This document shows, piece by piece, positions 7,653 to 27,324 of a DNA stretch of 46,305 bases (positions are counted from its first letter, which is position 1; every line of letters starts with the position of its first letter). This DNA is from Gemmatimonadaceae bacterium (GTDB taxonomy: Bacteria > Gemmatimonadota > Gemmatimonadetes > Gemmatimonadales > Gemmatimonadaceae). A program made the position numbers and the translations under genes. The notes under the pieces are model-generated. The model did not search any database, was not told where the DNA came from, and worked only from the letters and a program-made list of their open reading frames with translations. The stretch lies in the NCBI GenBank assembly GCA_034666285.1, contig JAXDME010000278.1, forward strand, positions 1 through 46,305, read 5' to 3'.

Positions 7653-7856
7653 ATGATCAGGTCTCATCGAGGAACTCCATCGCGCATCCTCGGAATCCTC
7701 TCGGGGGGTCTCGCGGCGATCCTCGGGTTTCTCGCCTTCAACGTAATCGACGGCGTCTTCGGCTTCGGCAAGTCGCTCATCGGTCTCGCCGCTGGCATCG
7801 CAACGACGTTGCTGGTATTCACGCGCTCACCGCGGGGCCGCGACGCCGATGCATAA
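7653..7856 (+). CDS. Small two-TM membrane protein (67 aa)
   Basis: ATG 7653 follows the dehydrogenase stop. Two hydrophobic segments; the end overlaps the cydA start and it fills the gap in the operon. Confidence 0.55.
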   Translation: MIRSHRGTPSRILGILSGGLAAILGFLAFNVIDGVFGFGKSLIGLAAGIATTLLVFTRSPRGRDADA

Positions 7857-9258: not shown

Positions 9259-10256
9259 CGATGAACCTTCCGCTGCTCTCGGCGCTGTTCATGTTGTTCG
9301 CCCTCGGGATCTACGTCGTTCTCGACGGTTTTGATCTTGGCGTCGGCGCGCTTCTGTTCGCACAGCGGGATCAACTGACGCGCGACCGGATGGTGGATGC
9401 GATTGCCCCGACGTGGGATGGAAACGAAACGTGGCTGGTGATGGCTGGCATCACGCTGCTCGCCGGATTCTCCATCGCCTACGGTATTCTCATTCCCGCG
9501 TTCTGCATCCCGGTAACAGCGATGGTTGTCGCGCTCGGAATGAGAGGCGTCTCTTTCGAATTCCGCCACAACAGCACCACGCTTCGCCGCCGGTGGGATG
9601 CAGTGTTCGCTGCGGGCTCACTCGTCGCAGCCCTGGCGCAGGGCGTGATCATCGGCGGATTGATTCAGGGTGTCGACATCGATCGAAACGAGTTTGTCGG
9701 AAGTCCGCTCGACACGTTCAGCCTGTTCACGCTTCTGACCGGAGTGACGGTTGTCGCCGGCTATGCCACGCTCGGGGCAGGCTGGCTTCGTCTCAAGGGA
9801 GAGGATGCGACGCGCACCTTTGCGAAAAGGCATCAGCGATGGCTGCCGCTGGCATTCCTTGGACTGACGATGATCACCAGCCTGGTCGCAGCAGCCGTGC
9901 AGCCCCGCCTGGTTGCGTCGTGGCCCGCCCACCGTGTCGCACTGTCGTGGTGTTTTATCACATTCATCACCTGCGCACTCGGGATCGCGTGGCTCGCACG
10001 TCGCGACGACGTCGATGATCGCATTGGATTCGGGCTCGCCCTCGCGATGATGCTGAGCGGAGTTGTCGCGCTCGGTATTTCGTTCTTCCCGAATGTCATT
10101 CCGTTCAGAATGAGTTTGTGGGACGCAGCCTCCGATCCGGAAACCCAGGAGTTCGTGCTCATCGGGGCTTTGATAGCCACGCCGGTCATACTCGGATACA
10201 CGAGTTTCGCGTATTGGGTTTTTCACGGAAGAACGCCGGCGGACGGATGGTATTGA
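9255..10256 (+). CDS. cydB: Cytochrome bd-type quinol oxidase subunit II
   Basis: YVVLDGFDLGVG, PTWDGNETWLV, RGVSFEFR, YWVFHG. GTGA overlap with cydA (alternative ATG 9261). Confidence 0.95.
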   Translation: MTMNLPLLSALFMLFALGIYVVLDGFDLGVGALLFAQRDQLTRDRMVDAIAPTWDGNETWLVMAGITLLAGFSIAYGILIPAFCIPVTAMVVALGMRGVSFEFRHNSTTLRRRWDAVFAAGSLVAALAQGVIIGGLIQGVDIDRNEFVGSPLDTFSLFTLLTGVTVVAGYATLGAGWLRLKGEDATRTFAKRHQRWLPLAFLGLTMITSLVAAAVQPRLVASWPAHRVALSWCFITFITCALGIAWLARRDDVDDRIGFGLALAMMLSGVVALGISFFPNVIPFRMSLWDAASDPETQEFVLIGALIATPVILGYTSFAYWVFHGRTPADGWY

Positions 10257-11625: not shown

Positions 11626-14600
11626 CTACGTGACGACGCCGATGGGGACAGTGAAACGGAAGAGCGCGCCATGTGGGACGCGCGGCGACACCCACAAGCG
11701 CCCGCCGTGAGCGTCGATGATCGAGCGGCAGATCGACAACCCCATGCCAAGACCCTCGGGCTTGGTCGTGACGAAGGGGTCGAAGATGCGCTGGGCGATG
11801 GCCGGATCCAGTCCCGGCCCGCTGTCCTCGACCGAGATCAGGACACTGCCTGCCTCGGTTAGTGCGGACGATACCGTCAACTCCGTCGCACGGTCCGTGA
11901 CCACTTTCATCGCGTCGATCGCGTTCAGGATCAGGTTCAGCAGCACCTGCTGTAACTGCACCCGGTCGCCCACCATGGCCTGATCGCCGACGGCGAGGTC
12001 GGTCCGCAGAACGACGCCGTGCCGCTGCACTTCACCGTGGGTGAGCGCCAGCACCTCGCGGATTGTCTGATCGATGTTGAACGTAGTGAGGCGTGGCCCG
12101 GATTTCGTTGCGAGCGAACGCAACCCGCGGATCACATCAGCCGCGCGCTGCCCGTCACTGACGATGCGCGCGAACGCGTCACGCGCTTCCTCGATCTCAG
12201 GCGTTTCGCGATCGAGCCAGCGCAACCCGGCGCTCCCTCGGCTCACGATGGCGGCGAGGGGCTGATTGATCTCATGCGCAATCGACGTCGCGAGCTCGCC
12301 CATTGTAGTGAGCCGCGCCGCACGTGCGAGCTCCGCCTGCGCGTCGCGCAGCGCTTCCTCGGCATTCCGACGCTCGGTGACATCCATGACGACGCCGCTG
12401 TATTCGAGCTCTTCGGACACTGACTCGTCGGGGCGCCCTACTATATGGAGGCACTTGATCGAGCCGTCGGGGAGCACCAGCCGATACTCGTGTTCGAACC
12501 GGAGTCGTTTGCGCACAGCCACGTCGAGCGCGTCCTGAAAGGCAGCCCGATCGTCGGCGTGAGTCATTGCAATGAAAGTCTCTGCTGGCGGCAGCGGTGC
12601 ATCCGGATCCACGGAAAGGATTCGCCGAAGCTCTGCGGACAGGGCGACCTCGCCGGTACTGGTCTTCCACCTCCAGCTTCCGGTATGGCTGATCTGCTGA
12701 GCCTCTTGAAGTGACGCTTCGCCCCGACGCAGTGCGTCTTCCGCCCGCTTACGGTCAGTTATGTCCACCACGATCCCAGCGAGGAGAGGCGTGCTCCCCG
12801 CCACCGGGATTGGAAAACCGCTGACCTCCGCCCAGACGACGCGACCATCCTTGTGCCGATACCGTTTCTCTACTCGCGTGGGCAGCTTTCCCGCTGCAGT
12901 TCCCACGATCATCGCCTCGGTCATAACGCGATCGTCCTCATGGGTGATGTCGGCGGCCGATCGGCCGCGCAGCTCCGTCTCGGAATAGCCCATCATTTTC
13001 TGGAGTGCAGAGTTTGTCGCGACGTAGTGCCCGTGAGTATCCGTCAATGCGACGCCAACGGGTGCGCCCTCGACCAGATTACGCCACCGCTCTTCGCTCA
13101 CTCGCAACGCGACTTCTACTGTCTGGCGCTCCCGGTTTTCATTGATCAGTTGCTCATAGAGGCGTGCATTCTCGAGTGAGATCGCGGCCTGCGACGACAG
13201 GAGCTCGAGCACAGCGATCCGCTCCGGTGTGAACACGTGCGAGGCCAGCGTGTTCTCGAGATAAAGAACGCCAACCAGCGTTGCCTGCTTCATAAGTGGC
13301 ACGCAAAGGACCGAGAGCGCGTGGGTCTGCGCGAAGTACGGATCCGCCGAAAAAGGGTTTTCGGCCAGGGCGTCATCAAGGATTACGTTTTCGCGAGTCC
13401 GGATTACAGTATGAAGCACGGACTCTGGCATGTCGATCGACGTCACCGTGTGATGCCGCAATTTCACATCGACTGTTTGCCGATCGGTGCTAGCCTCCGC
13501 TTCGAGTTTCGGGGTGTTCCCGCGCAGGAGAACGAGCAGGCCGCGCTCGGCGCCAGCGTGCTCGACCGCGATCGTCATCAGGGACTGGATGAGTCGGTCA
13601 AGCACGATCTCACCGGAGATAACCTGCGACGCTTTGACCACTGCGCCGATGTCCATCTGCCTGACGGACGCGTCTAACGCTGCATTAGCCCGCGTAGGGG
13701 GCACGTCATCGCGAAGCTCAGGGTACAGCTGCTCGAGCTGCCGGACCTTGCCGTCGGCGCCCCAGCGGCGATAGCAGTTCCGCGCGTTCCGGCGATACAT
13801 GCGAGTGAACGCCTCGAAATTGCGCGCGGCGTAGAACCGCGCAGCCACCTCGTAGGCCAGCCCTTCGTTCTGCTCCAGCCGATTTTCGTGCGCTGAGCAA
13901 ATGGCCTCTTCGTAGAGACGCATCGCCTCGGCATCTCGTCCTTCGAGGCGCGCGATCTCAGCCGACACGAGTGCGTGTTTATCCTTGAACGTCGGCGGAT
14001 AAGTGTCGGCCCACTCGCGCAGCCGCTCCTGGTGCTTCGTGAGGAGATCCCGCCACTCAGCCTGTTCGGCAGGCGGACCTTGCTCGAACAGTGCCGTAAC
14101 CGTCAATGCGGCATAGTAGAAGTAATCGAGCAGCTCGATCTGCGCGGTTGCGATCAAAAGGAGCGCCTTCGCTTTCTCAGCTGCGGCGAGAGCCTCCGCG
14201 TAATCACCCGACAGGAACCGCGCTTTCAGTTTGAGGATCCAATAGAAGCAGACCATCAAGGGCATTCGGTTCTCTGTCAGATGGGCCTCGAATGTCGCCT
14301 CGTCGAACTGCGCGTCACTGAACGTGGAGAAGCTCGCCGTCCTGCCCTGCATGGTAGCGACGAAGCGCTGTTGGCTCCGTATTATGTCCTCAGTGTCGCC
14401 GTACCTGGCTTGCCGGGCGACGTCCAGTGCCACCTCAGACTCGCGCCAAACCGCGTCGAGCGGATCGTTGCGGAGCAGAAGGCCCGGAACGATCTGGTGC
14501 ATTCCGTAGCAAGCGAAGGTCATATCGCCAATCTCGATCGCGGCGCGAGTCGTCGCGCGCATGTACTCGATCCCGGTCTCGACCGGCTGCGTCCAGAAGG

Positions 14601-17538
14601 CGACCGTCCCGGTCGCATGGTAGACTTTGGGGCGGTTGGCGATGAAGCCATGCTTCTCCACGAGATCGCAGGCGAGCCTGGCGAAACGATAGCCCTCGCC
14701 GTAACGGTGAAAGACCGGGCCGGAGATAAATCCGAGAAGGGCAAATCCGAGCGCGGAAGCGTCGCTGATTCCGTGTTGCATGCTGAGATTCACCATGCGA
14801 CAGGCAATCACGCAGAATGAGTGAAAGTCTGTGAAATAGGCCGGCGGACCGAGAACCGAGAGCATCTGCACGGCAGCCTGCAGCTCCGGATCGGTCATCA
14901 GCGGGAGATCGATCAGGCTGTCGGTTGATCGCCCCTCGAGACTTTGCCCAACACTTTCGTATTCGAGCTGCACTTGCTCCCACGTCGGATGCGGCGGGAT
15001 GTCGATGTCGAACAGGCGCAGACACGTGAGCGCGCTGGCCACAGCCTGGGGATTTTCCGACTTCACCGTATGGAGTAGAACCTTGATGTGATAGGCGGCC
15101 GCCTGATCGACATTCGACGCCGCGTGCCGCAGCAACTCCGCGCACAGTCGCTCCGTTTCGTCGAAGTTTCCGCTCAGAAATTCGCACTCCGCGCGTTCAC
15201 GCCAAAGATCGAAGGCCAGTTCGTAATGTCTTTCCCAATCCACTTCCTCGAGCAGAGCCATACCGGCTGCGAGATATACGGACGCCGACGCATACGCCGC
15301 CGAACCCTTGGCTCTCTGCCCGGCGCGGAGGGCTAGCGCCGCAACCCGCGGCTTCTCATCCGGGTCAACCACGCGGGCGATGCCGCGAATGAACTGATTT
15401 GCGACGTCGAACAAATGGTCTGAGAGCTCATCGCTCGTCATGCGCGACAGTAGGGCGCGTCCTATGCGCAGGTGTGCTTCCGCACGGCGTGTTTCAGGAA
15501 TCAGTGAATAGGCGCCCTGCTGTATCCTGTCATGCAGAAATGTGTAGGCGGTCTCCTGGCGGAGAATCAGCCCGGCATGAACAGCTTCCCGGAGCGATTC
15601 ATCAATCGCCTCTTCTTTTTCCCCGTGAACGAGAGTGAGCGTAGCGATTTCGACGGCGTTGCCAAGACAGGCGAGCTCTTTCAGTGCTTGCTGCGTGGGA
15701 GCCGGCAACCGCTTCAGTTTACCAGTCATGAGCTCCGCGACATTGTTGGCGTAGCTCTTGGCGCGGATGCGACCGATGTCCCACCGCCACGCTCCCGCGA
15801 CGGTGTCGAACGCAAGCGACCCATCATCCGCCAACGCTGTGAAAAAGTGGATCGCGAAGAACGGATTTCCGCCGGTCTTCTCATGAACCAGTTGCGCCAG
15901 CTCCAGCGCGCGCTCCGGTTCGCAGTGCAGCGCATTGGCCACGAGACGCCCGACATCGTCGAGCCGAAGGGGTGCGAGCACAATCTCGTCCACCCTCGCG
16001 CCGGAAGTACGCATCGCATCTAACGTGCGCCTCAGCGGGTGCGAGTGACCGACTTCGTTGTCGCGGTATGCGGCCACTAGCAAGAGATGACGTACCTCCT
16101 GATGCGCGAGCAGATGCTCGATCAGATCCAGAGTCGCCGCGTCGAGCCACTGGAGATCGTCGAGGAACAAGACGAGCGGATGCTCCTGCCGCGCGAAGAC
16201 CGCGACGAAACGGCGGAATACCATTTGGAACCGATTTTTCGCATCATGCGGCGGGAGATCGGCGACTGGAGCCTGCGGTCCAACGACGAGCTCCAGGTCG
16301 GGCACCAGATTCACGATCAGCTGCGCATTGGGCCCTAGGGCATCGCGCAGCGCATCGCGCCAGCGAGCGAGATCCTCTTCACTCTGACCGAGGAGCGGTC
16401 TCACGAGGCTCTGAAATGCCTGGGCCAGCGTTGCAAACGGGATATCGCGCTTGTACTGGTCGAACTTGCCGGACGCGAATAGCCCGCGTGACGGGGCGAG
16501 TACTTTGTGGAGCTCGTGAACCACCGACGATTTTCCGATGCCGGAATAACCGGCCACGAGCACAAGCTCCGGTGTACCTTGCGCGACGACACGATCGAAC
16601 GCAGACAACAACGCGTCGATCTCTCGCTCACGCCCGTAGAGTCGCTCCGGGATCAACAGCCGATTCGACGCGTCATGACTCGCGAGGGGAAAGGTCTCGA
16701 TGCAGCCGAACGCATCCCAGTCCGACAGGCATCGCCGCAGATCGAGAGCGAGTCCGGCGCAAGTCTGGTAGCGGTCTTCAGCCCTCTTCGCGAGCAACTT
16801 CAAAACGATTGCCGAGACCTGCGCCGGTATCGCCGGCACTCGCTCGCTAGGTGAGTCCGGTTGCCGGGCGATGTGGCAGTGAACCCACTCCATTGGATCG
16901 CTGGCGATGAACGGGAGCGATCCGGTGAGCATTTCGTAGAGGGTGACACCAAGCGCGTAGAGATCACTCCTGCTGTCTACTGATCGGTTCATCCTCCCGG
17001 TCTGCTCGGGCGCCATGTAGGCGAGCGTCCCTGCAATCACCTCTGGGGCTGCCGGCGTTTGATGCTCGCGCGGCAGGTGCGAGGCGATGCCAAAGCCTGT
17101 GAGCCACACGCCGCCTGACGCCGTATCTACCAGAATGTTGGCCGGCTTGACGTCCTTATGGATAAGCCCCTTCGCGTGCACATGCCCCAGGGCTTCCGTG
17201 AGTGGGATGGCGATGCGCAGAAATTCGCCAACGCCTAGCGGCTGGCCCACAAGCCGTTCGAGTGGCTCGCCCCCGCGGTCTTCGAGCACCAGTACCTGCC
17301 GCAAATCGCGCCTGAGCAGCTCCAGTGGCCGCGCTGCCCAGTCGGCGTTGAGCTCTGTGCGCAACGCGAATTCGTGCTCGAGGCGCTCGAGAGACTCCGG
17401 CCCGGGATGGTCTCCGCTGGGCGCGACGAGGAGGATCGGGGCAAGGCCGTCGCCCAGACCCCGCGACAATGTGAAGGGGCCTTCCCGCAACTGCGAGAAT
17501 TGGTACGCCGAGAGTTCGGTCACAGGGAGCCTTCCCAT
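11626..17538 (-). CDS. Multidomain Ser/Thr-kinase-like / AAA-type NTPase / GAF / 2xPAS / histidine kinase
   Basis: HKDVKPAN and YMAPEQTG; Walker A GYSGIGKS and Walker B LFLDDLQW; helical region; GAF (LVGVLYLEN); two PAS/PAC; H-box HEINQPL; NLILNA, DSGPG, FDPFVTTK, GLGMGL. Confidence 0.93.
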   Translation of the reverse strand: MGRLPVTELSAYQFSQLREGPFTLSRGLGDGLAPILLVAPSGDHPGPESLERLEHEFALRTELNADWAARPLELLRRDLRQVLVLEDRGGEPLERLVGQPLGVGEFLRIAIPLTEALGHVHAKGLIHKDVKPANILVDTASGGVWLTGFGIASHLPREHQTPAAPEVIAGTLAYMAPEQTGRMNRSVDSRSDLYALGVTLYEMLTGSLPFIASDPMEWVHCHIARQPDSPSERVPAIPAQVSAIVLKLLAKRAEDRYQTCAGLALDLRRCLSDWDAFGCIETFPLASHDASNRLLIPERLYGREREIDALLSAFDRVVAQGTPELVLVAGYSGIGKSSVVHELHKVLAPSRGLFASGKFDQYKRDIPFATLAQAFQSLVRPLLGQSEEDLARWRDALRDALGPNAQLIVNLVPDLELVVGPQAPVADLPPHDAKNRFQMVFRRFVAVFARQEHPLVLFLDDLQWLDAATLDLIEHLLAHQEVRHLLLVAAYRDNEVGHSHPLRRTLDAMRTSGARVDEIVLAPLRLDDVGRLVANALHCEPERALELAQLVHEKTGGNPFFAIHFFTALADDGSLAFDTVAGAWRWDIGRIRAKSYANNVAELMTGKLKRLPAPTQQALKELACLGNAVEIATLTLVHGEKEEAIDESLREAVHAGLILRQETAYTFLHDRIQQGAYSLIPETRRAEAHLRIGRALLSRMTSDELSDHLFDVANQFIRGIARVVDPDEKPRVAALALRAGQRAKGSAAYASASVYLAAGMALLEEVDWERHYELAFDLWRERAECEFLSGNFDETERLCAELLRHAASNVDQAAAYHIKVLLHTVKSENPQAVASALTCLRLFDIDIPPHPTWEQVQLEYESVGQSLEGRSTDSLIDLPLMTDPELQAAVQMLSVLGPPAYFTDFHSFCVIACRMVNLSMQHGISDASALGFALLGFISGPVFHRYGEGYRFARLACDLVEKHGFIANRPKVYHATGTVAFWTQPVETGIEYMRATTRAAIEIGDMTFACYGMHQIVPGLLLRNDPLDAVWRESEVALDVARQARYGDTEDIIRSQQRFVATMQGRTASFSTFSDAQFDEATFEAHLTENRMPLMVCFYWILKLKARFLSGDYAEALAAAEKAKALLLIATAQIELLDYFYYAALTVTALFEQGPPAEQAEWRDLLTKHQERLREWADTYPPTFKDKHALVSAEIARLEGRDAEAMRLYEEAICSAHENRLEQNEGLAYEVAARFYAARNFEAFTRMYRRNARNCYRRWGADGKVRQLEQLYPELRDDVPPTRANAALDASVRQMDIGAVVKASQVISGEIVLDRLIQSLMTIAVEHAGAERGLLVLLRGNTPKLEAEASTDRQTVDVKLRHHTVTSIDMPESVLHTVIRTRENVILDDALAENPFSADPYFAQTHALSVLCVPLMKQATLVGVLYLENTLASHVFTPERIAVLELLSSQAAISLENARLYEQLINENRERQTVEVALRVSEERWRNLVEGAPVGVALTDTHGHYVATNSALQKMMGYSETELRGRSAADITHEDDRVMTEAMIVGTAAGKLPTRVEKRYRHKDGRVVWAEVSGFPIPVAGSTPLLAGIVVDITDRKRAEDALRRGEASLQEAQQISHTGSWRWKTSTGEVALSAELRRILSVDPDAPLPPAETFIAMTHADDRAAFQDALDVAVRKRLRFEHEYRLVLPDGSIKCLHIVGRPDESVSEELEYSGVVMDVTERRNAEEALRDAQAELARAARLTTMGELATSIAHEINQPLAAIVSRGSAGLRWLDRETPEIEEARDAFARIVSDGQRAADVIRGLRSLATKSGPRLTTFNIDQTIREVLALTHGEVQRHGVVLRTDLAVGDQAMVGDRVQLQQVLLNLILNAIDAMKVVTDRATELTVSSALTEAGSVLISVEDSGPGLDPAIAQRIFDPFVTTKPEGLGMGLSICRSIIDAHGGRLWVSPRVPHGALFRFTVPIGVVT

Positions 17539-17687: not shown

Positions 17688-19334
17688 TTACCGGGCCATC
17701 ACGCTGTCCCGCGCGAGCACGGTACCGGAGACGTCGGCCATCGACTCGTAATACGAGACGAACCGGTCCGTCTCGGGAGCGCGCTGCAGACGGAGATTCT
17801 GCGCCCACCGAAAGCCAATAGGCTGGTACCAGAGCTCCACCAGGACCTTGAAAGGCCCCTGTCCTCGCGGGACGTCGATGTTGTAGCGGGTCAGAGCCGA
17901 GCCGCCGACGAACGCGGGATCGTTCGCCGCGTCACCTACGACGGCGATGTCGCGATCGGCCGTTGTCTTGTCGAAGCCGCGCGGCAGAATGCGACTGTCC
18001 TTCAGGTAGCCTATACCAGACACGATTCCGGTCGTGACGATGCCGTATGGATCGCGCATGATCGACTCGTAGATCTGCACCTGACCGGATTGCGTGATTT
18101 CGCGATAGTGCGGTTCGTACCTGAGGCGATCGTCATCGTTGTCGTTGCCGACAATTCGACCGGTCCGGGTCAGAGCGCCCGACTCAAAGACTATTGCGCC
18201 AGATCGGTCGCGCACGACAACGTGCAGCCAGGCGCGACGCGAGGGATAAGCCGTCGGGAGCTTGTGGCCGCTCAGGTTCGTCACCTCCACATCTGCCACG
18301 AGATGTCCCGAAGCGGCGTGCCCCGGTCGTACCGTCACCGTCGCAGCTTGCGCCAGGATCGCGCGCGTCTGCGACATCGCGAGATCGAGCTCCTGCGGGA
18401 ATGCCTCGACTGCCAGCTCCGCGCGGTAACGATTGAGCATGCCGAGCACGAAGAAATTTCCGCCTGGGAACCAGTGCCGCCGCACGTCGGGCCGCGACTG
18501 GCCACGAATCGCCGTGATGGGAACACTGTCGCCCGCGGCGACGACGCGCGGCATATGACACGACTGGCAGCTTTGCTCGTTGCGGTACGCGCTGTGTTTC
18601 CACTCGAGAAAGGGCATCTGCTCGGGCAATGTGCCGACACGGCGACCCGTCGAATCCAGGCTCGGTGTGTACAGCGTGTGACACGTCGCGCACAGCTCGG
18701 ATTGGCGAATATGTTCGCTCTGGGTCGGAACGAATCCGCTCGACGAGTGCATGATCGTCGTGTGTCCGCGATCCACCGCGTAAGGGCCGAAGATCGGCCG
18801 GCGACCCACGGGCGTCGTGGTGTCGATCACGAAGCCGCCGTTGAAGCTGGAGGAATCGCCGAGGCGCTCTGTTCCGATCTGGTGGCACATGGTGCAGGAA
18901 ACGCCATCCGCGGCGAGGCTGTCGAGATGATTGGTCCCTCCCCTGGTTGGGAACCGGTCGAAGACCAGTCCCCGGCCACCCGACGCGCGCGCGGCGAAGC
19001 GCTGCATGGGCATGTGGCAGGTGGAGCAGTCGTCCTGGATCAGAGCGCTCGCGGTCGGGTGATCGAGAACCTCGCGCCGCACGGACGCTTGCCAGTACGG
19101 ATCGCGTGACGAGTTGGCCATCATCGACGCGCGCCAGTCGAATCCGATCGACGCATCCCGTCCCGAGGGCGTGGTGAGACCGTTGTGACACGCGAGGCAC
19201 CGATCTGCAGTGAGGAAATGCGCCGGCCCAGCCTCACCCCCACTCGGCGCGGTGGTGTAGCCCATCGTCGCGATGAGCACGAGGATCGCGGCCACCGTCG
19301 CGACGGGCGCGCCGAGGCGTCTCAGTGCTCGCAT
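17688..19334 (-). CDS. Exported pentaheme c-type cytochrome
   Basis: Five CxxCH motifs (CLACH, CSTCH, CTMCH, CATCH, CQSCH). Signal peptide from ATG 19334 (MRALRRLG...). Heme-free C-terminal domain with GHKLPT. Confidence 0.85.
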   Translation of the reverse strand: MRALRRLGAPVATVAAILVLIATMGYTTAPSGGEAGPAHFLTADRCLACHNGLTTPSGRDASIGFDWRASMMANSSRDPYWQASVRREVLDHPTASALIQDDCSTCHMPMQRFAARASGGRGLVFDRFPTRGGTNHLDSLAADGVSCTMCHQIGTERLGDSSSFNGGFVIDTTTPVGRRPIFGPYAVDRGHTTIMHSSSGFVPTQSEHIRQSELCATCHTLYTPSLDSTGRRVGTLPEQMPFLEWKHSAYRNEQSCQSCHMPRVVAAGDSVPITAIRGQSRPDVRRHWFPGGNFFVLGMLNRYRAELAVEAFPQELDLAMSQTRAILAQAATVTVRPGHAASGHLVADVEVTNLSGHKLPTAYPSRRAWLHVVVRDRSGAIVFESGALTRTGRIVGNDNDDDRLRYEPHYREITQSGQVQIYESIMRDPYGIVTTGIVSGIGYLKDSRILPRGFDKTTADRDIAVVGDAANDPAFVGGSALTRYNIDVPRGQGPFKVLVELWYQPIGFRWAQNLRLQRAPETDRFVSYYESMADVSGTVLARDSVMAR

Positions 19335-20515
19335 CCCTGACACCAGCCTTTCCAGCCTTGCATTAGCGGTCCGTCCGCGATGTCCCACAACAAATAGGCA
19401 CGAGCGAGCGTCGAGCGCGTGTCGCGCTGCGTCAGCGGGATGTCGGCACCCAGGCCCAGGCGAACGTGCTGTAGCGCGCTAAGCGAGACCTGGAATTGCG
19501 GCACAACGCTCCAGTCGACCGGCGCACCTACGCCGAGGTCGTGCGACGCAGTCAGCTCGACAATCGGCGACCAGATGCGCGTGATCGGTCCGAGGCCGAA
19601 AGTCTTGCCGAGCGCGCCGCCGAAGTATGTCGACCGCGGCGCGCGAGACAAATCGACTGGCACTGTCAGACCGCCCTGAAACTGGAAGAAACCTCGTCCG
19701 GGGAATAGCTGAGCGCCGAGGATGAAGCCCTCGAACGCCGTTGTGCCGGTACCGAGTCCAATTGTTCGGTCGCCCGTTGGAAGAACTACGCCCGCCAGTC
19801 CGCTCACGATCGTGCCGCTGTTCAGGTTGGCGACGAACACGTGCTTGCCTGCGATAGAGATGTCACCCATTCCACCCGCCACCGAAGCGCCATTCGGACG
19901 CGCGACGAACCCGAACGGGATGTCGAGCTCGAGCTGACTGCGGATCCCGAAACGTTTCTCGTAGATGAGATGATTCTCGTCCGACCTCGGCGCGCGCGTT
20001 GCGAATGCGCTCGTCGCGACCCACTCATCCTCCGGAAATGCTTTCTCGGTGGTCTGCGCGAGCGCCACGTTGAACTCGCCGAGCGGATATCGACGATCCT
20101 TACACAAAGTCCGCATGTACGCGGTGACGTTTCGAATCTGCTGCGGGGTGAGCAGGTCGCGGAACGCAGGCATGATCCGGCTGAAGCCGCGCACCGGCCC
20201 GCCATCGCGAATGACCGCCGCCCAATCCACCGTCATCTCGGCAGTGGTGGCAACGCAGTCGTTGAATACTGGAAGTGGCTGCGCAAATCCCACTGTGCTT
20301 CGCGGAGCGCCCGCCCCGTCGAGGCCGTGGCACGCGGCGCAGGTCGTGCGAAAAATCTCCTCTCCTGCTTTCGGGTCGCCGAAGGGGGCGCCGATCGCAC
20401 CGCTCGCTCCCACGAGCAACGCGATAACCGGCACCGCCGCGACGAACAAAATCGCGGCGATGCGCATCGGCAACCAATATATGATTACAGCCAGGTAGGT
20501 TCGCATGTGTTCCAT
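19322..20515 (-). CDS. Monoheme cytochrome c fused to a predicted outer-membrane beta-barrel-like domain
   Basis: Signal peptide (start possibly ATG 20467); CAACH...MPAF class I cytochrome c; then ~230 aa of amphipathic strands with GMGDISIAGK and LPTGD...GLGTG. The barrel assignment is inferred. Confidence 0.7.
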   Translation of the reverse strand: MEHMRTYLAVIIYWLPMRIAAILFVAAVPVIALLVGASGAIGAPFGDPKAGEEIFRTTCAACHGLDGAGAPRSTVGFAQPLPVFNDCVATTAEMTVDWAAVIRDGGPVRGFSRIMPAFRDLLTPQQIRNVTAYMRTLCKDRRYPLGEFNVALAQTTEKAFPEDEWVATSAFATRAPRSDENHLIYEKRFGIRSQLELDIPFGFVARPNGASVAGGMGDISIAGKHVFVANLNSGTIVSGLAGVVLPTGDRTIGLGTGTTAFEGFILGAQLFPGRGFFQFQGGLTVPVDLSRAPRSTYFGGALGKTFGLGPITRIWSPIVELTASHDLGVGAPVDWSVVPQFQVSLSALQHVRLGLGADIPLTQRDTRSTLARAYLLWDIADGPLMQGWKGWCQGCEH

Positions 20516-20602: not shown

Positions 20603-22027
20603 CTACGGAGGAGTTACCTCGATCGTTCCCATCATGCCCTTGTCTTCGTGCGAGAGTATGTGGCAGTGAAAGACGAACCTGCCGACGATCAACGGGTCGG
20701 TGAACGGGATGATTACCTTCACCTCGCCGCCGATTGGGACATCGACGATGTCGCGATGGTCGTCGACGGGTTGCGCAACGCCGTTGATCTCCACCAGCTG
20801 AAAAGGGCCCTGGTGGATGTGAAAGGTGTGCAGCTCGTCCGCCGAGTTGCGGATCGTCCACTCCTCGATTGCGCCGAGCTTGACGCGGACGTCGGTCCTG
20901 CCCGGATCGAAGGTCCTGCCGTTGATGAACAGAGTGTCACCATCCTTCGTTTCCGAGAACACGATGGTGCGCCGGTTGGTGACCTTTCCCCGGAGATCTT
21001 CGACGGACAGCAGCGCGGGAGGGAGGAGCACCGGCGTGGCCGGCGGTCCTTCCACGCGCACAGTTGCCATGACCGTACCGGCATACTGATTTCCTTCGCG
21101 CCCGGTGTCGACGTCTCCCGTCCGGAGCACGTAGACTCCCGGAGCACCGGCCGTCACGAGAACCTCCGCGCGGGCGCCCGGCGACAGCCTGACCGTGTCT
21201 GCCGTCGCTATTCTCGTCCGACGGTTCCCGTCGCGGGCCACCAGCCGAAACTGGTGGCTGTCGAGCGTGAGCACGAAGTAGAGATCGGCGGACAGATTCC
21301 CGATCCGCCACAGCTCGGTCGCGCCCGGGCGGAGCACGATCACCGGCTTTACCACGCCGTTGATGGTGCGGATGACGCGCTTGCCGATGTGGGTGATCAC
21401 GACGCGTTCATTTTCGAGCTGAAGACCTTTGAGCAGTAACAGGCGCTCCGGCACGTGGCGAAGTGTAGGGAACGAATCCAGGAGCCCATCGACAATCAGC
21501 GCTCCTGCCATACCGTTTCGGACCTGCTCGTCGGAGAAACCGTGAGTGTGCGGGTGATACCAGAAAAGTCCCGGGGGTTGATTGCCCGGAATCCGGATCT
21601 CGTAGTCCTGCGCTTGTCCCGGCGCGACGCGCAGGAAGACGTTATCAGAGTTGCCGCGCGGCGAAACCGTCAGGCCGTGAGTGTGCAGGTTCGTCGGCTC
21701 GGCAAGCGCGTTCGTCAGGCGAAGCCGGATAGTATCGCCCGGACGGACTCGCAGCGTTGGTGGTGCATAGAGCCCGTTGTAGGCCATGAGCGACGCGCGA
21801 TGTCCCGCTACCGTGACCAACGACAGCTTGGGTGTCAGCGAAGTTCGCAGCACGCCGGCCCTGCTGTTTATGACCGGCGGTTCACGAAACGTCTCCGCCG
21901 GCGCGTGCGGCTCGCGGTCATTGTTTGAAGCGGAGCTGCAGCCAGTCACGGCTAAGGCGACGAGCAGGAACACAGATCGAGTGAGTCCAACTTTTCGTCG
22001 CGACCTGATGGACACACACCTTTCCAA
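20603..22027 (-). CDS. Three-domain multicopper oxidase, lipoprotein
   Basis: All four Cu motifs present: NLHTHG, WYHPH, HTFHIH, HCHILSHEDKGMM. Lipobox AVTG-C. Exact start uncertain. Confidence 0.93.
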   Translation of the reverse strand: MERCVSIRSRRKVGLTRSVFLLVALAVTGCSSASNNDREPHAPAETFREPPVINSRAGVLRTSLTPKLSLVTVAGHRASLMAYNGLYAPPTLRVRPGDTIRLRLTNALAEPTNLHTHGLTVSPRGNSDNVFLRVAPGQAQDYEIRIPGNQPPGLFWYHPHTHGFSDEQVRNGMAGALIVDGLLDSFPTLRHVPERLLLLKGLQLENERVVITHIGKRVIRTINGVVKPVIVLRPGATELWRIGNLSADLYFVLTLDSHQFRLVARDGNRRTRIATADTVRLSPGARAEVLVTAGAPGVYVLRTGDVDTGREGNQYAGTVMATVRVEGPPATPVLLPPALLSVEDLRGKVTNRRTIVFSETKDGDTLFINGRTFDPGRTDVRVKLGAIEEWTIRNSADELHTFHIHQGPFQLVEINGVAQPVDDHRDIVDVPIGGEVKVIIPFTDPLIVGRFVFHCHILSHEDKGMMGTIEVTPP

Positions 22028-22044
22028 TCAGGGTTCTGACGAGC

Positions 22045-22593
22045 TCAAACGGGCGCCAATTCCGCGCGACGTCCTGCTTCAAACAGGAACCAGGAGCGTC
22101 GCTCGGTCTCGTCCACCCAGACCTCGATGAGGCTGGCGGTCGCGATGTCACCGTGCTCGTCGCACACATTGTGGGCCTGTCGCAAACTTCCCGCGAGCGT
22201 CCTGTTGTCCTCGGCGAGCTCGGCGAGCATGTCCGATGGCTCGACGTAGTCTGCATCATTATCCGATAGGCGCTGGGTGCGGGCGATATGGCCGATCGAT
22301 CTGATGGTGAGCCCGCCGACCTTTCGAACCCGTTCCGCGATCGGGTCGGTGATGGCGAAGATCTGATCGGCCTGCTCATCCAGCAGCAGATGGTAGTCGC
22401 GAAAGTGCGGTCCGCTCATGTGCCAGTGGAAATTCTTTGTCTTTATGTAGAGTGCGAATACATCGGCAAGAATGCCGTTCATTGCGGCCGTGATATCTCG
22501 CGTTGCGATCTGCTTGAGGTCGGTCGGCGTCGACAGCACCGCATCCCGCCTATGGCGCAGAGCTTCTGTTGTCAGCGATAGTGTCATTGTCAT
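22045..22593 (-). CDS. dps: Dps / DNA starvation-stationary phase protection ferritin-like protein
   Basis: KNFHWHMSGPHFRDYHLLLDEQ, DPIAERVR, ETERRSWFL. GAGGGA RBS. Confidence 0.93.
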   Translation of the reverse strand: MTMTLSLTTEALRHRRDAVLSTPTDLKQIATRDITAAMNGILADVFALYIKTKNFHWHMSGPHFRDYHLLLDEQADQIFAITDPIAERVRKVGGLTIRSIGHIARTQRLSDNDADYVEPSDMLAELAEDNRTLAGSLRQAHNVCDEHGDIATASLIEVWVDETERRSWFLFEAGRRAELAPV

Positions 22594-22650
22594 TGGCTGT
22601 CCCTCTCATGAATGTTGGATTGTCCTGTCGTCGGGCTCGATGGGTTAGCT

Positions 22651-22696
22651 CTGACAACCGACGGCGCCGCTGTTGGAGGCACCGTCCAGTTGTCGG
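22651..22696 (-). other. Intergenic stem-loop between the DUF4136 gene and dps
   Basis: On the - strand GACGGUGCC pairs with GGCGCCGUC (one G-U) and the outer GACAAC pairs with GUUGUC. No U-tract. Confidence 0.4.
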
Positions 22697-22708
22697 AACA
22701 GTCATTGG

Positions 22709-23368
22709 TTAGGGAGCACTTGCGAGCGGCTGCGGTGGCGCTTGCGGAAACTTCGCGACGATGGCGTTGACAACACCCTGGAGCTCACTCGAGTATGTCG
22801 CCGGATCGCTTGATACCGGCTCGACGCCCTGGCCCCGCCAGATCAGCTCGTTGGTCCGCGGGTCGGTGAAATCAACGATCACTTTTCCCTCAGTGGTCGA
22901 TGTCACGCTCGCTTGACCGCCGTAGGCCCACGGGTTCATCGCGCCATAGTATCCGGCACCGTAGTACGGCCACGCCCAGCTTCTGCGACCGCGGTAGGTG
23001 TAACGCCAACCCGGATCGAAGCTCGGGCCCCAGTATGTGGTGTCGAGCTTCTGACTGGTGCCGGCGTAATATGCGACGAGAAAATCCGCCGACTGACGCG
23101 GCGCCTGTGCGTAGCCGCGCGACTGTAGCGCCTGGGCCAGATCTCCGCGCAACGCACGATTGCTGATCGAGTTGTCGAGCATCGGATCGCTCGCGGAGAG
23201 CGGGGCCGCGTTAACGCTGCGCGCTGGCGGCGTAAGAACGTAGAAGGTGTGCAACGCGGTTAGGTCGGCGTTGGGTTCGACGGCAGTGCGCACTTGCACT
23301 CCGCCGGAGCTGCAGCCCGTAGTGATTGCCGTCGCGATGACGGCGCCGAGCAGTAGGGTGGATCGCAT
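22709..23368 (-). CDS. DUF4136-family lipoprotein
   Basis: Lipobox ITTG-C; L.SRGY...ADFLVAY; Tyr/Trp/Gly-rich insert; EGKVIVDFTDPRTNELIWRG; IVAKFP. AGGAG RBS. Confidence 0.8.
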   Translation of the reverse strand: MRSTLLLGAVIATAITTGCSSGGVQVRTAVEPNADLTALHTFYVLTPPARSVNAAPLSASDPMLDNSISNRALRGDLAQALQSRGYAQAPRQSADFLVAYYAGTSQKLDTTYWGPSFDPGWRYTYRGRRSWAWPYYGAGYYGAMNPWAYGGQASVTSTTEGKVIVDFTDPRTNELIWRGQGVEPVSSDPATYSSELQGVVNAIVAKFPQAPPQPLASAP

Positions 23369-23479: not shown

Positions 23480-23851
23480 CTATCGATGCATTATCCGACC
23501 GAGCACTTCGAAGAGTGCCGAGTCGCTGAAAGGTTTGTACAACCGGGGGACGTCGCCAGCTTCGCGAGCCAGCTCCGTCGTCGCGGCATCGCGCCGTCCT
23601 GTGATGAGCACCGCTGGCAATCGGTGTCCGTTCCCGCCGAGTCCTTTGACGAGCTCTACTCCGCTCATTCCAGGCAGGTTGATGTCGGCGATGAGACAGT
23701 GCACCTGCTCTTTGCCTGAGCGGGCCAGAAAGGCCTCGGCTGATTCGAAGGTCAGTGCCTGGAATCCGGCCGATCGCAGTAACTGCTCGAGCGCGGTCCG
23801 AACTCCCGCATCATCCTCGACCACCGCGATCGTCTTGCTGCTGTTTGTCAT
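23480..23851 (-). CDS. Stand-alone response regulator receiver
   Basis: IAVVEDD, LIADINLPGMSG (phospho-Asp), LITG, YKPF; 123 aa. GAGG RBS. Confidence 0.9.
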   Translation of the reverse strand: MTNSSKTIAVVEDDAGVRTALEQLLRSAGFQALTFESAEAFLARSGKEQVHCLIADINLPGMSGVELVKGLGGNGHRLPAVLITGRRDAATTELAREAGDVPRLYKPFSDSALFEVLGRIMHR

Positions 23852-23886
23852 GCCTCAGGCTATAGGGTGTTGCAGGGTCGAAGCAA

Positions 23887-23902
23887 TGCTACCTTCGTAC
23901 GA
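23887..23902. promoter_or_regulatory. Putative TF site TGCTAC-CTTC-GTACGA
   Basis: One mismatch to the local consensus and followed by CA as in other copies. Intergenic, upstream of the receiver gene. Confidence 0.5.
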
Positions 23903-23924
23903 CAGGTTTTGTGCCGCGGGAGGT

Positions 23925-24569
23925 TCAGGATTCGTGCGCGCGAACGGAGCCGACCTGGCTATGGCCGGATGCTCTCTCGACCACCCGAACAAGCTCGGCG
24001 ACTGAATCGACCTCGAGCTTCCGCATCACGCGGCCCCGGTGCTGTTTCACTGTCTGCTCGGCGGTGCCCAGATCGGCGGCGATCTGCTTGTTCATCTTTC
24101 CTGCGACGACAAGATCCAGTACCTCGCGCTCTCGTGGGGTCAGTCGCTCGATGCGCCGCCGAGCCTCGGCCTGCTCTGAGCGGCCCGCTCTGATCAGCCG
24201 GTCGCGCTCCAGCGCGACGTCGATCGCGCCGAGGAGATCATCTTCGCGAAACGGCTTGGTCAGAAACTCGAGGGCTCCCGACTTCATGGCGCGGACGCTC
24301 ATTGGAATCGTTCCGTGCCCGGTGATGAAGATGATCGGGAGCGGCACGTCCAGATCGTTCAGCTCGTCGGGCAAGTCGAGGCCGCTACCGTCCGGCAGAC
24401 GAACATCCAGAATGAGACAGCTCGGCACGTCGTCGCGCGCTGACGCCAGGAACTCGTGCGCGGACCCGAAGGTCTCGACGCGCAGTCCGACCGATCGCAG
24501 CAGGCTGCTCAGGGAATTTCTGATGCCGGAATCATCGTCGACTACGTAAACGATTCGGCCACCGGTCAT
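23925..24569 (-). CDS. FixJ/NodW-type response regulator (REC + LuxR HTH)
   Basis: VYVVDDD, LILDVRLPDGSG, FITGHG, FLTKPF, LTPREREV...MNKQIA.DLG..EQTVKQHR. Start set at ATG 24569. Confidence 0.93.
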   Translation of the reverse strand: MTGGRIVYVVDDDSGIRNSLSSLLRSVGLRVETFGSAHEFLASARDDVPSCLILDVRLPDGSGLDLPDELNDLDVPLPIIFITGHGTIPMSVRAMKSGALEFLTKPFREDDLLGAIDVALERDRLIRAGRSEQAEARRRIERLTPREREVLDLVVAGKMNKQIAADLGTAEQTVKQHRGRVMRKLEVDSVAELVRVVERASGHSQVGSVRAHES

Positions 24570-24688
24570 CGGGCCCGTCCGATTCGTGGACACGACCGGG
24601 AGACCAACGTATGAACGAGTGGTGCGCGCATCATCCGTCCTTGCTTCGATCATATCATGCAGATAGCAGCAATCCCGCGGTCGCGATA

Positions 24689-24721
24689 TCGCACCTTAGT
24701 ACGACATACGAAAGGATTATA
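24689..24721. promoter_or_regulatory. Putative TF site TCGCAC-CTTA-GTACGA (24689-24704) plus a degenerate tandem copy; TATAAT on the - strand at 24716-24721
   Basis: AT-rich divergent region between the regulator and kinase genes. Motif match; exact -10 hexamer but no well-spaced -35. Confidence 0.55.
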
Positions 24722-24726
24722 TAACG

Positions 24727-25968
24727 TTGCGCGGGGCCGGCCGAGATTCAAGCCACCCCGGTCCAATCGAATCCCGCTTGCTTGACACCCAACGGCTGGC
24801 AACGATCTTCCCAGCTGTGCGATACGTCGTCGCGATCGTGTCTGTTGGCATCGCGCTGCTGATCTCGCGGCTCCTCGACGTCTATCTCGTCGCCGCGCCC
24901 GTATCCCTGTTGTTGTGCGCAATCATGATCAGCGGCTGGTTCGGCGGGATTCGTGGCGGATTGCTGTCGGTAGCATTGTCGGTGCTCGCCTTCGACTACT
25001 ACTACACCGCCCCGCTCCATTCGCTGTGGCCGGAGGAGAAGGAACTGCCGCGCATCCTCATCTTCGCCTTATCGGCGGTGTTCGTGGGGTGGCTCAGTGC
25101 CGCGCAAAGAAGTACGGCGGAATCCCTCAGAAACGCGCGCGATCAGCTGAGTGAAACAGTGCAGCAGCTGAGAACCGCCAACGAAACGTTGAAGGCCGAG
25201 GACGCCGAGCGCAGGCGAACAGCGGAGCAGCTGCGACAGGCACAGGCCGATCTTACGCGAGTCGGGCGCGTAACAGCGATGGGTGAGCTCACCGCTTCGC
25301 TCGCCCATGAAGTGAATCAGCCGTTGGCGGCGACGGTGATAAATGCGAACAGCTGCTCTCGCTGGCTGGCGGGAGACACGCCGAACATCGGGGAGGCTCG
25401 AGCTGCTGCCGCGCGGATCGTCCAGGAAGGCACCCGCGCCGCCGAGATCATCAGAAGGGTTCGCCTGCTTTTCACAAAGGGCGAGGAGAAGCGAGAGCCG
25501 ATCGATGTGAACGAAATAATCGACGGCATGATCGTCCTTTTGCGCGGCGAAGCGGCGCAGCATTCCGTTACGATCCACTCGGAACTGGCGACCGATCTTC
25601 CCGGGATCATGGGAGACCGCGTACAGCTCCAGCAGGTGATGATGAATTTGATAATGAACGGCATCGATGCTATGAAGGAAGCGAACGGACAGCGCGAGAT
25701 ATCAATCACGTCGCGGTGGCCGAGTCACGAACAAATCCAGGTATCAGTCAGCGATACCGGTGTGGGGCTCCCGCAGGACCAGGATCAGATCTTCAGACCG
25801 TTCTTCACCACCAAGAGCGACGGCATCGGGATGGGGCTTTCGATCAGTCGTTCGATCATCGAGTCCCACGGCGGTCGTTTGTGGGCGTCCAATGGCTCGC
25901 CGCGCGGCGCCACCTTCAACCTCACCCTGCCCGTTCCGGACACGCTCGGGGGCGGAGCGCCGCTGTGA
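24727..25968 (+). CDS. Membrane sensor histidine kinase (DUF4118-like input, FixL/NodV-like transmitter)
   Basis: Four N-terminal TMs (GWFGGIRGGLL); HEVNQPL, NLIMNG, DTGVG, FRPFFTTK, GIGMGL. Start uncertain (could be downstream of 24727). Confidence 0.9.
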   Translation: MRGAGRDSSHPGPIESRLLDTQRLATIFPAVRYVVAIVSVGIALLISRLLDVYLVAAPVSLLLCAIMISGWFGGIRGGLLSVALSVLAFDYYYTAPLHSLWPEEKELPRILIFALSAVFVGWLSAAQRSTAESLRNARDQLSETVQQLRTANETLKAEDAERRRTAEQLRQAQADLTRVGRVTAMGELTASLAHEVNQPLAATVINANSCSRWLAGDTPNIGEARAAAARIVQEGTRAAEIIRRVRLLFTKGEEKREPIDVNEIIDGMIVLLRGEAAQHSVTIHSELATDLPGIMGDRVQLQQVMMNLIMNGIDAMKEANGQREISITSRWPSHEQIQVSVSDTGVGLPQDQDQIFRPFFTTKSDGIGMGLSISRSIIESHGGRLWASNGSPRGATFNLTLPVPDTLGGGAPL

Positions 25969-25973
25969 GGGCG

Positions 25974-26003
25974 TGGTATGTCATACCTAGGTATGACATA
26001 CCA
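25974..26003. repeat. Perfect 30-bp nested palindrome TGGTATGTCATACCTAGGTATGACATACCA
   Basis: Read directly: 15-bp arms with no spacer. Each arm contains GGTATG-N-CATACC; the core is TCATAC-CTAG-GTATGA. Confidence 0.95.
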
Positions 26004-26067
26004 AATGGGGACTGCTGAATGCCGCGCCCACGGCGAAATTCGCATCGTACCGCACGGAGGCGATACG

Positions 26068-27324
26068 ATGTCGGAAAACGCCAGACGGTATGGCATTGCG
26101 CTGGTCGCGTCGGTCGTTGGTATCGGCGCGGTATTATCGCTGGGGAAGTTACTTCCTTTCGAGCCGTTCCTCCTTTTTGCGGTTCCGGTCGCGTTGACGT
26201 CCCGTTACGCCGGGCGCGGGCCGACGGCATTAACGGTTGTCCTGAGCGTGATCGGCATTGAGGCCACGCTGATACTGACGACCGGGCGGTTCAGATTCTC
26301 CGTGGGAGATCTGTGGATCCACGCGGCAATTTTCTCCCTTGTCGCGTGGTCGATAGACTCGACCACCGAAGCGCTGCGCAAAGCGCGCCGCTCCGCTGAG
26401 CGGTCCGCTGCGCATCTGGAGGACATGAACGTCGAGCTCGAGCAGCAAATGGAGCACATCCAGCTGCTATCGGACGATCTGCAGAAGACCAACGAGTCGC
26501 TGGCCGCCGCCCGCGACGTTGCAGAGAGCGCCTCACGGGCACGCGAAGAGATGCTCGCCGTCGTCGCCCATGACCTGCGCAATCCGCTCAACGTCGTGAT
26601 GATCGCGAGAGGGCTCCTGGCCGAGACGGAGCCAACCGGCGAAAGGCGCAATCAGCTGTTCGCGGTCATGCAGCGCGCCACGCAGCGGATGAACCGCCTG
26701 ATCGAAGATCTGCTCGAGGTGGTGCGGCAGGAATCGGGGCAACTGAAACTGGATTTCGAAGATGTGCCGGTGGCTTCTCTCGAAGCACAGACAATGGAGA
26801 TGTTCCAGAACTCTGCCGCGGAGAATGGTATATCCCTTCAGTTCGAGGAGACTGCACCCGGGCTGGCGGTGCGCGGAGACTCGGAGCGCATCCTGCAGAT
26901 CCTGAGCAACCTCATAGGCAATTCACTGAAGTTCGTCCCGCGAGGTGGAAGCGTCGTAGTCAAATGCGAGCGCAAAGGGACGGAAGTGGTTTTCGCCGTT
27001 ACAGATTCGGGGCCAGGCATCGCCGGCGAAGATCTCGAGCGTTTGTTCGAGAAATTCTGGCAGCGCCGTCGGTCTGACAGGCGCGGCGTTGGACTTGGAC
27101 TTTCAATTGCCCGCGGCATTGTGGAAGCTCATGGCGGGCGAATCTGGGCGGAGAGCCGTGTTGGCGACGGCTCGACGTTCTATTTCACTTTGCCGGCTGC
27201 CATCGAGTTCAGCGAAGAAGCACCGTTTTCCATGAACGGAACCCATCCTGGATCGGTCGGCAAAGCCCCGATGGGCGCGATACTGGCAGAGATGGCAGGT
27301 ACTTCTGCGACGGCGGGTGGATGA
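26068..27324 (+). CDS. Membrane sensor histidine kinase (HisKA + HATPase)
   Basis: GGAG RBS and ATG 26068; N-terminal TMs, coiled coil, HDLRNPL, NLIGNS.KF, DSGPG, GLGLSI. Confidence 0.9.
   Translation: MSENARRYGIALVASVVGIGAVLSLGKLLPFEPFLLFAVPVALTSRYAGRGPTALTVVLSVIGIEATLILTTGRFRFSVGDLWIHAAIFSLVAWSIDSTTEALRKARRSAERSAAHLEDMNVELEQQMEHIQLLSDDLQKTNESLAAARDVAESASRAREEMLAVVAHDLRNPLNVVMIARGLLAETEPTGERRNQLFAVMQRATQRMNRLIEDLLEVVRQESGQLKLDFEDVPVASLEAQTMEMFQNSAAENGISLQFEETAPGLAVRGDSERILQILSNLIGNSLKFVPRGGSVVVKCERKGTEVVFAVTDSGPGIAGEDLERLFEKFWQRRRSDRRGVGLGLSIARGIVEAHGGRIWAESRVGDGSTFYFTLPAAIEFSEEAPFSMNGTHPGSVGKAPMGAILAEMAGTSATAGG

Follow-up and report, generated by a model that had tools for sequence, protein, structure and literature searches.

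Among fused cytochrome-porins we found a single described family, Cyc2, which is used as a marker gene of iron oxidation. Its defining features are the motif AxPxFAR[QK][TY] upstream of CxxCH, a heme segment of short length and a barrel of 16 strands (10.1101/228056). The heme is periplasmic, so the reaction takes place only with dissolved substrates that enter the pore (10.1101/228056; PMC13741234). The other nearest published systems are ExtI-ExtKL and PtdAB, in which the pentaheme proteins ExtKL and PtdA (the latter with porin PtdB; 10.1101/2023.11.21.568154) are also found in clusters with a porin gene. MtrAB and MtoAB likewise comprise an outer-membrane barrel and a periplasmic multiheme cytochrome (10.1101/228056; PMC10734462). 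We analyzed contig JAXDME010000278.1 of a Gemmatimonadaceae bacterium (GenBank assembly GCA_034666285.1), positions 1 to 46,305; this whole stretch is referred to as the window. It contains a gene encoding a monoheme cytochrome c fused to a predicted outer-membrane beta-barrel, followed by a gene encoding a pentaheme cytochrome. The fusion is real, widespread and uncharacterised. Our results support a design that is like that of Cyc2 and evolved separately, as an independently arisen cytochrome-porin fusion on a COG4313-like barrel. For its function we favor, at a probability of roughly 0.45, a model in which a small dissolved reductant would be oxidised in the plugged pore and electrons would pass inward to the neighbouring carrier.

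A previous reading of the window, made from sequence only, had described the protein as a full-sized cytochrome domain joined to a COG4313-like barrel, and had listed a signal peptide and the motifs CAACH, MPAF, FNDC, TLCK, G.GD and PTG. All of these features are present in the open reading frame (ORF), and they are more than chance because they are conserved across a 146-sequence alignment. In this alignment C59, C62 and H63 of the heme motif (CAACH, 59-63) are invariant, the distal ligand M115 is conserved in 98% of sequences, and the candidate disulfide C87-C138 in 82% and 84%, respectively. The domain, which also carries an invariant E93, is a full-size class I His/Met domain as proposed. 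Searches of Pfam, NCBIfam and PDB sequences with the query returned class I cytochrome c only (residues 47-137). The hydrophobic, signal-peptide-like stretch (residues ~17-40) was assigned by eye; M4 or M17 could be the true start, and a lipobox-like motif upstream of the heme motif was found in only 2 of 107 close homologues. The family itself is large, with 630 matches among 7998 candidates scored and 158 representatives at E<=1e-30.

Residues 41-397 were folded with the 146-sequence alignment, which was obtained from 202 full-length relatives by filtering at 85% identity and dropping two dubious rows. The model had high confidence (predicted local distance difference test, pLDDT, 94.7; predicted template modelling score, pTM, 0.91); in it, a linker of 24 residues joins a helical cytochrome domain to 12 strands. 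The cytochrome domain matched 7o38 (Z 12.7, root-mean-square deviation (rmsd) 1.8, 81 aligned). The top Foldseek match was FapF (E 1.4e-8), followed by the COG4313 channel 4RL8 (E 1.4e-5). A wide structure search likewise ranked FapF (5O65; Z 22.8, rmsd 2.3, 220 aligned) and 4RL8 (Z 21.7, rmsd 2.6, 217 aligned) above KdgM (Z 18.9) and autotransporters (Z 14.5-16.4). OprO and OprP did not appear in the fold matches listed, and we attach no weight to this. The structural check that the sequence-only reading had suggested thus returned a predicted 12-stranded barrel of the COG4313/FapF fold. PF13557 was not matched by the query itself in the Pfam search, while 24 of 96 family members matched it at E<=0.01 (best 2.1e-7).

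The alignments to 5o65 and 4rl8 begin in the linker of the predicted structure, at model residues 108 and 115, and the FapF alignment starts at FapF residue 92, within its plug helix. The N-terminal plug of FapF comes in from the periplasm (PMC5557850), and the COG4313 channel Pput2725 (4RL8) is plugged like FapF and has a conserved Asp and Pro-Thr-Gly (PTG) patch (PMC4493636). The query's model shares with these channels a barrel of 12 strands and a plug at the N-terminus, and its sequence shares the PTG motif and the conserved Asp in G.GD. It differs in that its plug runs on into a heme domain, in an invariant extension past the last strand, and in sequence (11% identity); the available descriptions of the channels report no redox cofactor. 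Across the 146 sequences the patch is conserved at D218 (GMGD, 84%), P246 (99%), T247 (82%) and G248 (80%; LPTGD), and it is altered in the Pseudomonadota clade. Other near-invariant barrel residues are E164, E186, R188, K224, R313 and E320. The last strand (AYLLW) is followed by 20 residues, which the sequence-only reading had noted as a caveat. They are indeed present, but they include a family-invariant extension, and Trp is the final residue in 86 of the 202 full-length relatives. In the query's clade the protein continues into KGWCxGCxH, with both Cys present in 75 of the 146 aligned rows. The codon of the second Cys overlaps an in-frame ATG of the downstream gene (three DNA examples). 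This CxxCxH tail is possibly a disulfide, a metal site or partly a by-product of the start-codon overlap.

The absence of homology to Cyc2, also proposed from the sequence, held up in the motif and profile tests. A highly diverged Cyc2 would share what is seen here: the domain order, a single N-terminal CxxCH after a signal-peptide-like start, a length of at least 365 aa and a predicted C-terminal barrel. The periplasmic heme described for Cyc2/Cyt572 would be a further likeness (10.1101/228056; PMC13741234). However, PxFxR within 16 residues before CxxCH was found in 0 of 146 rows, confirming that the PxFAR context is missing, and the model has 12 strands, against 16 in the OprO/P-like Cyc2 barrel. 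The heme segment of Cyc2 is short, whereas here the domain is full-size, and the usual partner is a pentaheme cytochrome. Profile-profile comparison (hhalign) of the family with 18 Cyc2 sequences, a set of close sequences from one phylum with low diversity, gave a probability of 5.1% for the whole protein and 0.06% (E 0.75) for the barrel alone, with 2.0% in a further run. The barrel against 18 PF13557 proteins gave 59.8% (E 8.8e-5). Descent from Cyc2 is thus largely refuted, and we regard it as scarcely tenable.

The window's own genome provides an internal control. It holds a real Cyc2-motif gene (524 aa; G000:C241:1-4816) with the PxFAR-type motif. On its 3' side come a gene for a diheme cytochrome, one for a protein with a copper motif, and those for subunits II and I of a heme-copper oxidase. 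Of 151 genomes sampled from the phylum, 19 have a Cyc2 homologue, and the diheme gene adjoins it in 19 of 19. In a small and ill-suited sample of 13 loci of distant pentahemes with 1.5 kb flanks, none had a Cyc2-motif gene next to the pentaheme.

The pentaheme gene lies downstream of the barrel gene and overlaps it by 13 bases, with its ATG inside the overlap. It had been left out of the sequence-only reading, and it is the main clue to function. Its model (pLDDT 83.3) matched cytochrome c552 of T. tepidum (5ZE8; E 3.5e-13; Z 22.8, rmsd 3.1, 349 aligned). Five CxxCH motifs and an immunoglobulin-like (Ig-like) domain are shared with c552, MccSep/ExtKL, the cable-bacteria PHC (PMC11976967) and PtdA. 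The sequence match to MccSep is weak (E 6.4e-4). MccSep has a catalytic selenocysteine (Sec325), a Cys ligand to heme 2, and heme 1 as its proposed electron entry (10.1101/2025.11.18.688581). The query's pentaheme differs in having Tyr at the selenocysteine position (U325), invariant in 34 of 34 pentaheme rows. It has no Cys outside the heme motifs, whose ten Cys are the only invariant ones. A polysulfide reductase of the MccSep type is ruled out because of the Tyr at the Sec325 site and the lack of extra Cys. The pentaheme family also has an invariant motif, GHKxPTAYPSRR. Compared with the ExtKL and PtdA clusters, the porin here bears its own heme and the unit has two genes, without a conserved inner-membrane part. 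An MtrAB-type conduit was ruled out as well: MtrAB is a 26-stranded barrel with an inserted decaheme cytochrome, whereas a plugged 12-stranded barrel cannot house a heme chain.

We then examined how regularly the two genes occur together. Of 93 loci that were confirmed in GTDB genomes, 80 were kept; most belong to Gemmatimonadota, Acidobacteriota or Pseudomonadota. Outside the Pseudomonadota, the pentaheme gene followed the barrel gene in 41 of 43 loci, and the two misses end at contig edges. In the reverse direction, 588 pentaheme loci from metagenomes were ranked and the best 80 inspected, a set biased to close homologues. The barrel gene was directly upstream in 78 and divergent in one; the one miss had 216 bases of flank. 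In a sample of 301 genomes of the phylum, 36 had the pentaheme and 35 of these had the barrel beside it. The barrel gene occurs patchily, in 0 of 36 genomes of the same genus, 2 of 24 of the same order and 60 of the 301. The cultured carriers of the barrel-cytochrome family are recorded under Lentisalinibacter and Elongatibacter, and Lentisalinibacter sediminis has the paired copy.

Some loci depart from this arrangement. Adjacent barrel and pentaheme genes are in divergent orientation at L173 and at G096:C107 (L216, L236). At several places (L001:8001-10862, L035, L043, L119, G297:C2, G298:C1 and G074:C62) the barrel gene is split by apparent frameshifts, which are probably sequencing errors; at L001 this gives a 947-aa ORF that fuses the cytochrome half to the pentaheme.

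A predicted complex of the two proteins supports binding of the barrel-cytochrome to the pentaheme, with the fused heme docked on heme 1. The complex score was 0.77, against 0.00 for the best of three controls. Of 157 solved complexes, 116 attain the mark used for this score, as do 2 of 215 mismatched pairs; these counts are rough, custom alignments having been used. Contacts agreed between runs to at least 96%, and the partner pLDDT was at least 89. On the barrel side the predicted interface comprises the loops round the fused heme (57-62, 70-78, 105, 113-121) and tail residues 393-394. On the pentaheme side it comprises the heme-1 motif and a neighbouring helix with an invariant Met. Clade-specific conservation of the interface residues, used as an independent test of the complex, gave no clean signal. 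The C-termini of outer-membrane barrels are described as lying on the periplasmic side. In the model the cytochrome domain and the post-barrel tail touch one partner, and therefore the heme is predicted to lie on the periplasmic side.

In one lineage the partner has changed. Of the 25 genomes in the 301-genome sample that have the barrel without the pentaheme, 9 belong to family f6 and 16 to family f2. In all nine f6 genomes, the gene directly 3' of the barrel encodes a protein with an HN...CxxHxWM motif (verified in alignment for 5 of 9 proteins), which we take to be a type-1 copper site. Pfam found only a carboxypeptidase-regulatory-like domain in it. The f6 partner shares 30-40% identity (E 3e-26 to 1e-43) with a protein encoded at 18 of 19 Cyc2 loci, so that in this clade the query family adjoins a copper-protein family found in the phylum's Cyc2 operons. 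In a quick tree of 142 rows, with two thirds of the metagenome rows thinned out and L016 mislabelled as having no partner because its pentaheme is truncated, the nine f6 rows form one clade (Shimodaira-Hasegawa-like approximate likelihood ratio test, SH-aLRT, 97) nested among pentaheme-paired rows (support 84-93). The partner was thus replaced once, with a predicted type-1 copper protein of the Cyc2-operon kind taking the place of the pentaheme. E93, N149, K158, E164, E186, K224 and the tail residues are essentially invariant in all partner classes. From the swap together with these invariant plug and lumen residues, we infer a separate function for the barrel-heme, which would pass electrons to exchangeable carriers. 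The sequence-only reading had left the choice between an independently evolved fusion and a redox-gated channel. The results support the fusion. The coupling of the gene to partners that carry electrons makes a gated channel the less likely choice.

These results suggest the following mechanism for oxidation in the pore. The protein would be exported, its heme attached and its barrel inserted, as the motifs and fold indicate. A small substrate would bind at the conserved charged site of plug and lumen. It must be small and enter the pore, because a single heme in the periplasm, beneath a plugged barrel of 12 strands, has no access to solids; the same has been argued for Cyc2. It would most likely be a reduced metal in dissolved or chelated form, for example Fe(II) or Mn(II), or possibly a hydroquinone or phenolic. 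Once bound, it would reduce the His/Met heme beneath the plug. From the exposed heme edge the electron could pass to heme 1 of the pentaheme, as in the predicted complex, and then, by analogy, to the heme-2 site where Tyr stands in place of the MccSep selenocysteine. In one lineage the acceptor would instead be the type-1 copper protein of the Cyc2-oxidase operon kind, whose gene is adjacent. Inward flow would suit both partners, by analogy with the heme-1 entry of MccSep and with a copper carrier between Cyc2 and its oxidase. In this account the fold, topology and docking are predicted, and the chemistry, substrate and electron direction are inferred.

Several observations weigh against inward oxidation. 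No pentaheme was found nearby in 37 of 37 Pseudomonadota-clade loci (6 with less than 1 kb of flank), and a close pentaheme was present in only 1 of 10 such genomes, beside a second barrel copy. The 16 f2 genomes also carry the barrel without a pentaheme, and no adjacent partner was recognised in f2 (two loci inspected) or in the Pseudomonadota clade. Among 131 loci surveyed, no inner-membrane link is conserved and no third gene recurs at more than 7. The nine genomes with the copper swap go back to one evolutionary event and count as one. The conserved carboxylates, matched by invariant Lys/Arg, may be structural salt bridges as in FapF. The structure closest to the pentaheme is titled low-potential, and transfer from a His/Met heme could be uphill.

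This last point leads to the reverse direction, a real rival that we consider less likely. Here electrons from a periplasmic substrate or from the cell would pass from the pentaheme through the fused heme to a dissolved acceptor in the pore, such as an Fe(III) or Cu(II) complex or a quinone, either to take up metal or to dispose of electrons. Compared with bis-His multiheme hemes, class I hemes with His/Met ligands usually have a higher potential, and the low-potential title of the c552 relative fits this direction. The CxxCxH tail of the query's clade could bind metal, and genes for a multicopper oxidase and Dps are located upstream in the window. However, a type-1 copper partner of the Cyc2-oxidase operon kind is more easily an acceptor, the proposed electron entry of MccSep is at heme 1, and the neighbouring oxidase gene lacks conservation (0 of 80 loci, and one other locus elsewhere). 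Another real rival, somewhat more probable than reverse flow, is a gated import channel. The barrel would then anchor a docked pentaheme enzyme and feed it a small, possibly hydrophobic substrate, with no electron coming from outside, and the fused heme would just relay electrons between periplasmic carriers and the enzyme or control the plug. Published work describes COG4313 channels as taking up hydrophobic molecules and as having a lateral-gate patch with PTG (PMC4493636), and the PTG is retained in the paired clades. The pentaheme is enzyme-like in its high conservation (66% mean column identity) and its invariant Tyr/Arg/Lys motif. Against this role stand the clade whose partner is a predicted pure electron carrier, which requires no imported substrate, and the complex model, in which the partner covers the heme edge. 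Lastly, the linker might run through the barrel in the manner of an autotransporter, so that the cytochrome would touch minerals or electrodes from the cell surface. Autotransporter barrels also have 12 strands, and a 24-residue linker is of sufficient length to cross. We consider this very unlikely, as the matches to FapF and 4RL8, whose plugs are periplasmic, lie about 5-6 Z units above those to autotransporters, and the heme domain and C-terminal tail meet the same partner in the model.

The features of the two genes are listed in Table 1.

Table 1 Features of the barrel-cytochrome gene and its pentaheme partner, in window coordinates.
Feature	Position	Strand	Basis
Monoheme cytochrome c with predicted 12-stranded outer-membrane barrel, whole gene	19322..20515	(-)	397 aa ORF
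Signal-peptide-like N-terminus, residues 1-40	20396..20515	(-)	Sequence, by inspection
Class I cytochrome c domain, full-size, residues 47-138	20102..20377	(-)	Pfam PF13442/PF00034, conservation, fold match
Plug/linker, residues 148-163, with N149 and KAFPEDE	20027..20074	(-)	Conservation, FapF structural alignment
Predicted 12-stranded beta-barrel, FapF/COG4313 fold, residues 164-378	19382..20026	(-)	Model and fold search
PTG motif in barrel	19772-19780	(-)	Sequence
C-terminal extension D378-x-x-D381-G382...W388, family-invariant	19352..19384	(-)	Alignment
Tail KGWCxGCxH, clade-specific, 9 residues	19325..19351	(-)	Alignment; covers start codon of pentaheme gene
Pentaheme cytochrome, 548 aa, five CxxCH, C-terminal Ig-like domain	17688..19334	(-)	ORF, fold, alignment

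Other genes are located around the pair. Genes for a multicopper oxidase, Dps and a DUF4136 protein are found upstream on the same strand (20603-23368 (-)), 87 bases from the barrel gene, and are possibly on one transcript with it at this locus. They were rejected as part of the unit, as they occur in 0 of 80 loci. The 131-locus neighbour survey showed an oxidase neighbour at one other locus and a weak Dps match in one other genome. By eye, the flanks (11626-17538 and 23480-27324) encode a 1970-aa protein with kinase/ATPase/PAS/histidine-kinase-like features and several two-component genes, and cytochrome bd-like genes are located at 7849-10256. At an f2 locus (L085:4530-8345, genome G057), a shorter partnerless barrel-cytochrome of 327 aa has molybdopterin oxidoreductase- and cytochrome b-like genes (by eye) about 1.4 kb away on the opposite strand.

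We found no published account of a fusion between a cytochrome and a COG4313/FapF barrel, with supplements and most subscription journals outside the scope of the search. The ESM Atlas gave only clusters with automatic names. Those at rank 23 contain proteins of about 450 aa, mostly from Acidobacteriota, with a cytochrome c and DUF5777, a membrane beta-barrel domain; these are possibly another cytochrome-barrel fusion.

As a broader and more tentative proposal, the family might be a second, convergent equivalent of Cyc2 that combines a COG4313/FapF channel with an ordinary class I cytochrome. At the outer membrane it would oxidise dissolved Fe(II), Mn(II) or reduced organics and feed either its own Tyr-site pentaheme enzyme or the blue-copper relay also used by Cyc2 operons, in many uncultured Gemmatimonadota and Acidobacteriota and some Pseudomonadota, and it would be missed by Cyc2-motif surveys. 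A second fusion on another barrel fold would mean that the cytochrome-porin design arose twice. The two-gene unit, the cultured carriers and the predicted interface make this directly testable. The fusion also supplies a redox partner for a widespread pentaheme family of mostly unknown function. If the proposal is true, the outer-membrane redox chemistry of soil and sediment bacteria has been undercounted.

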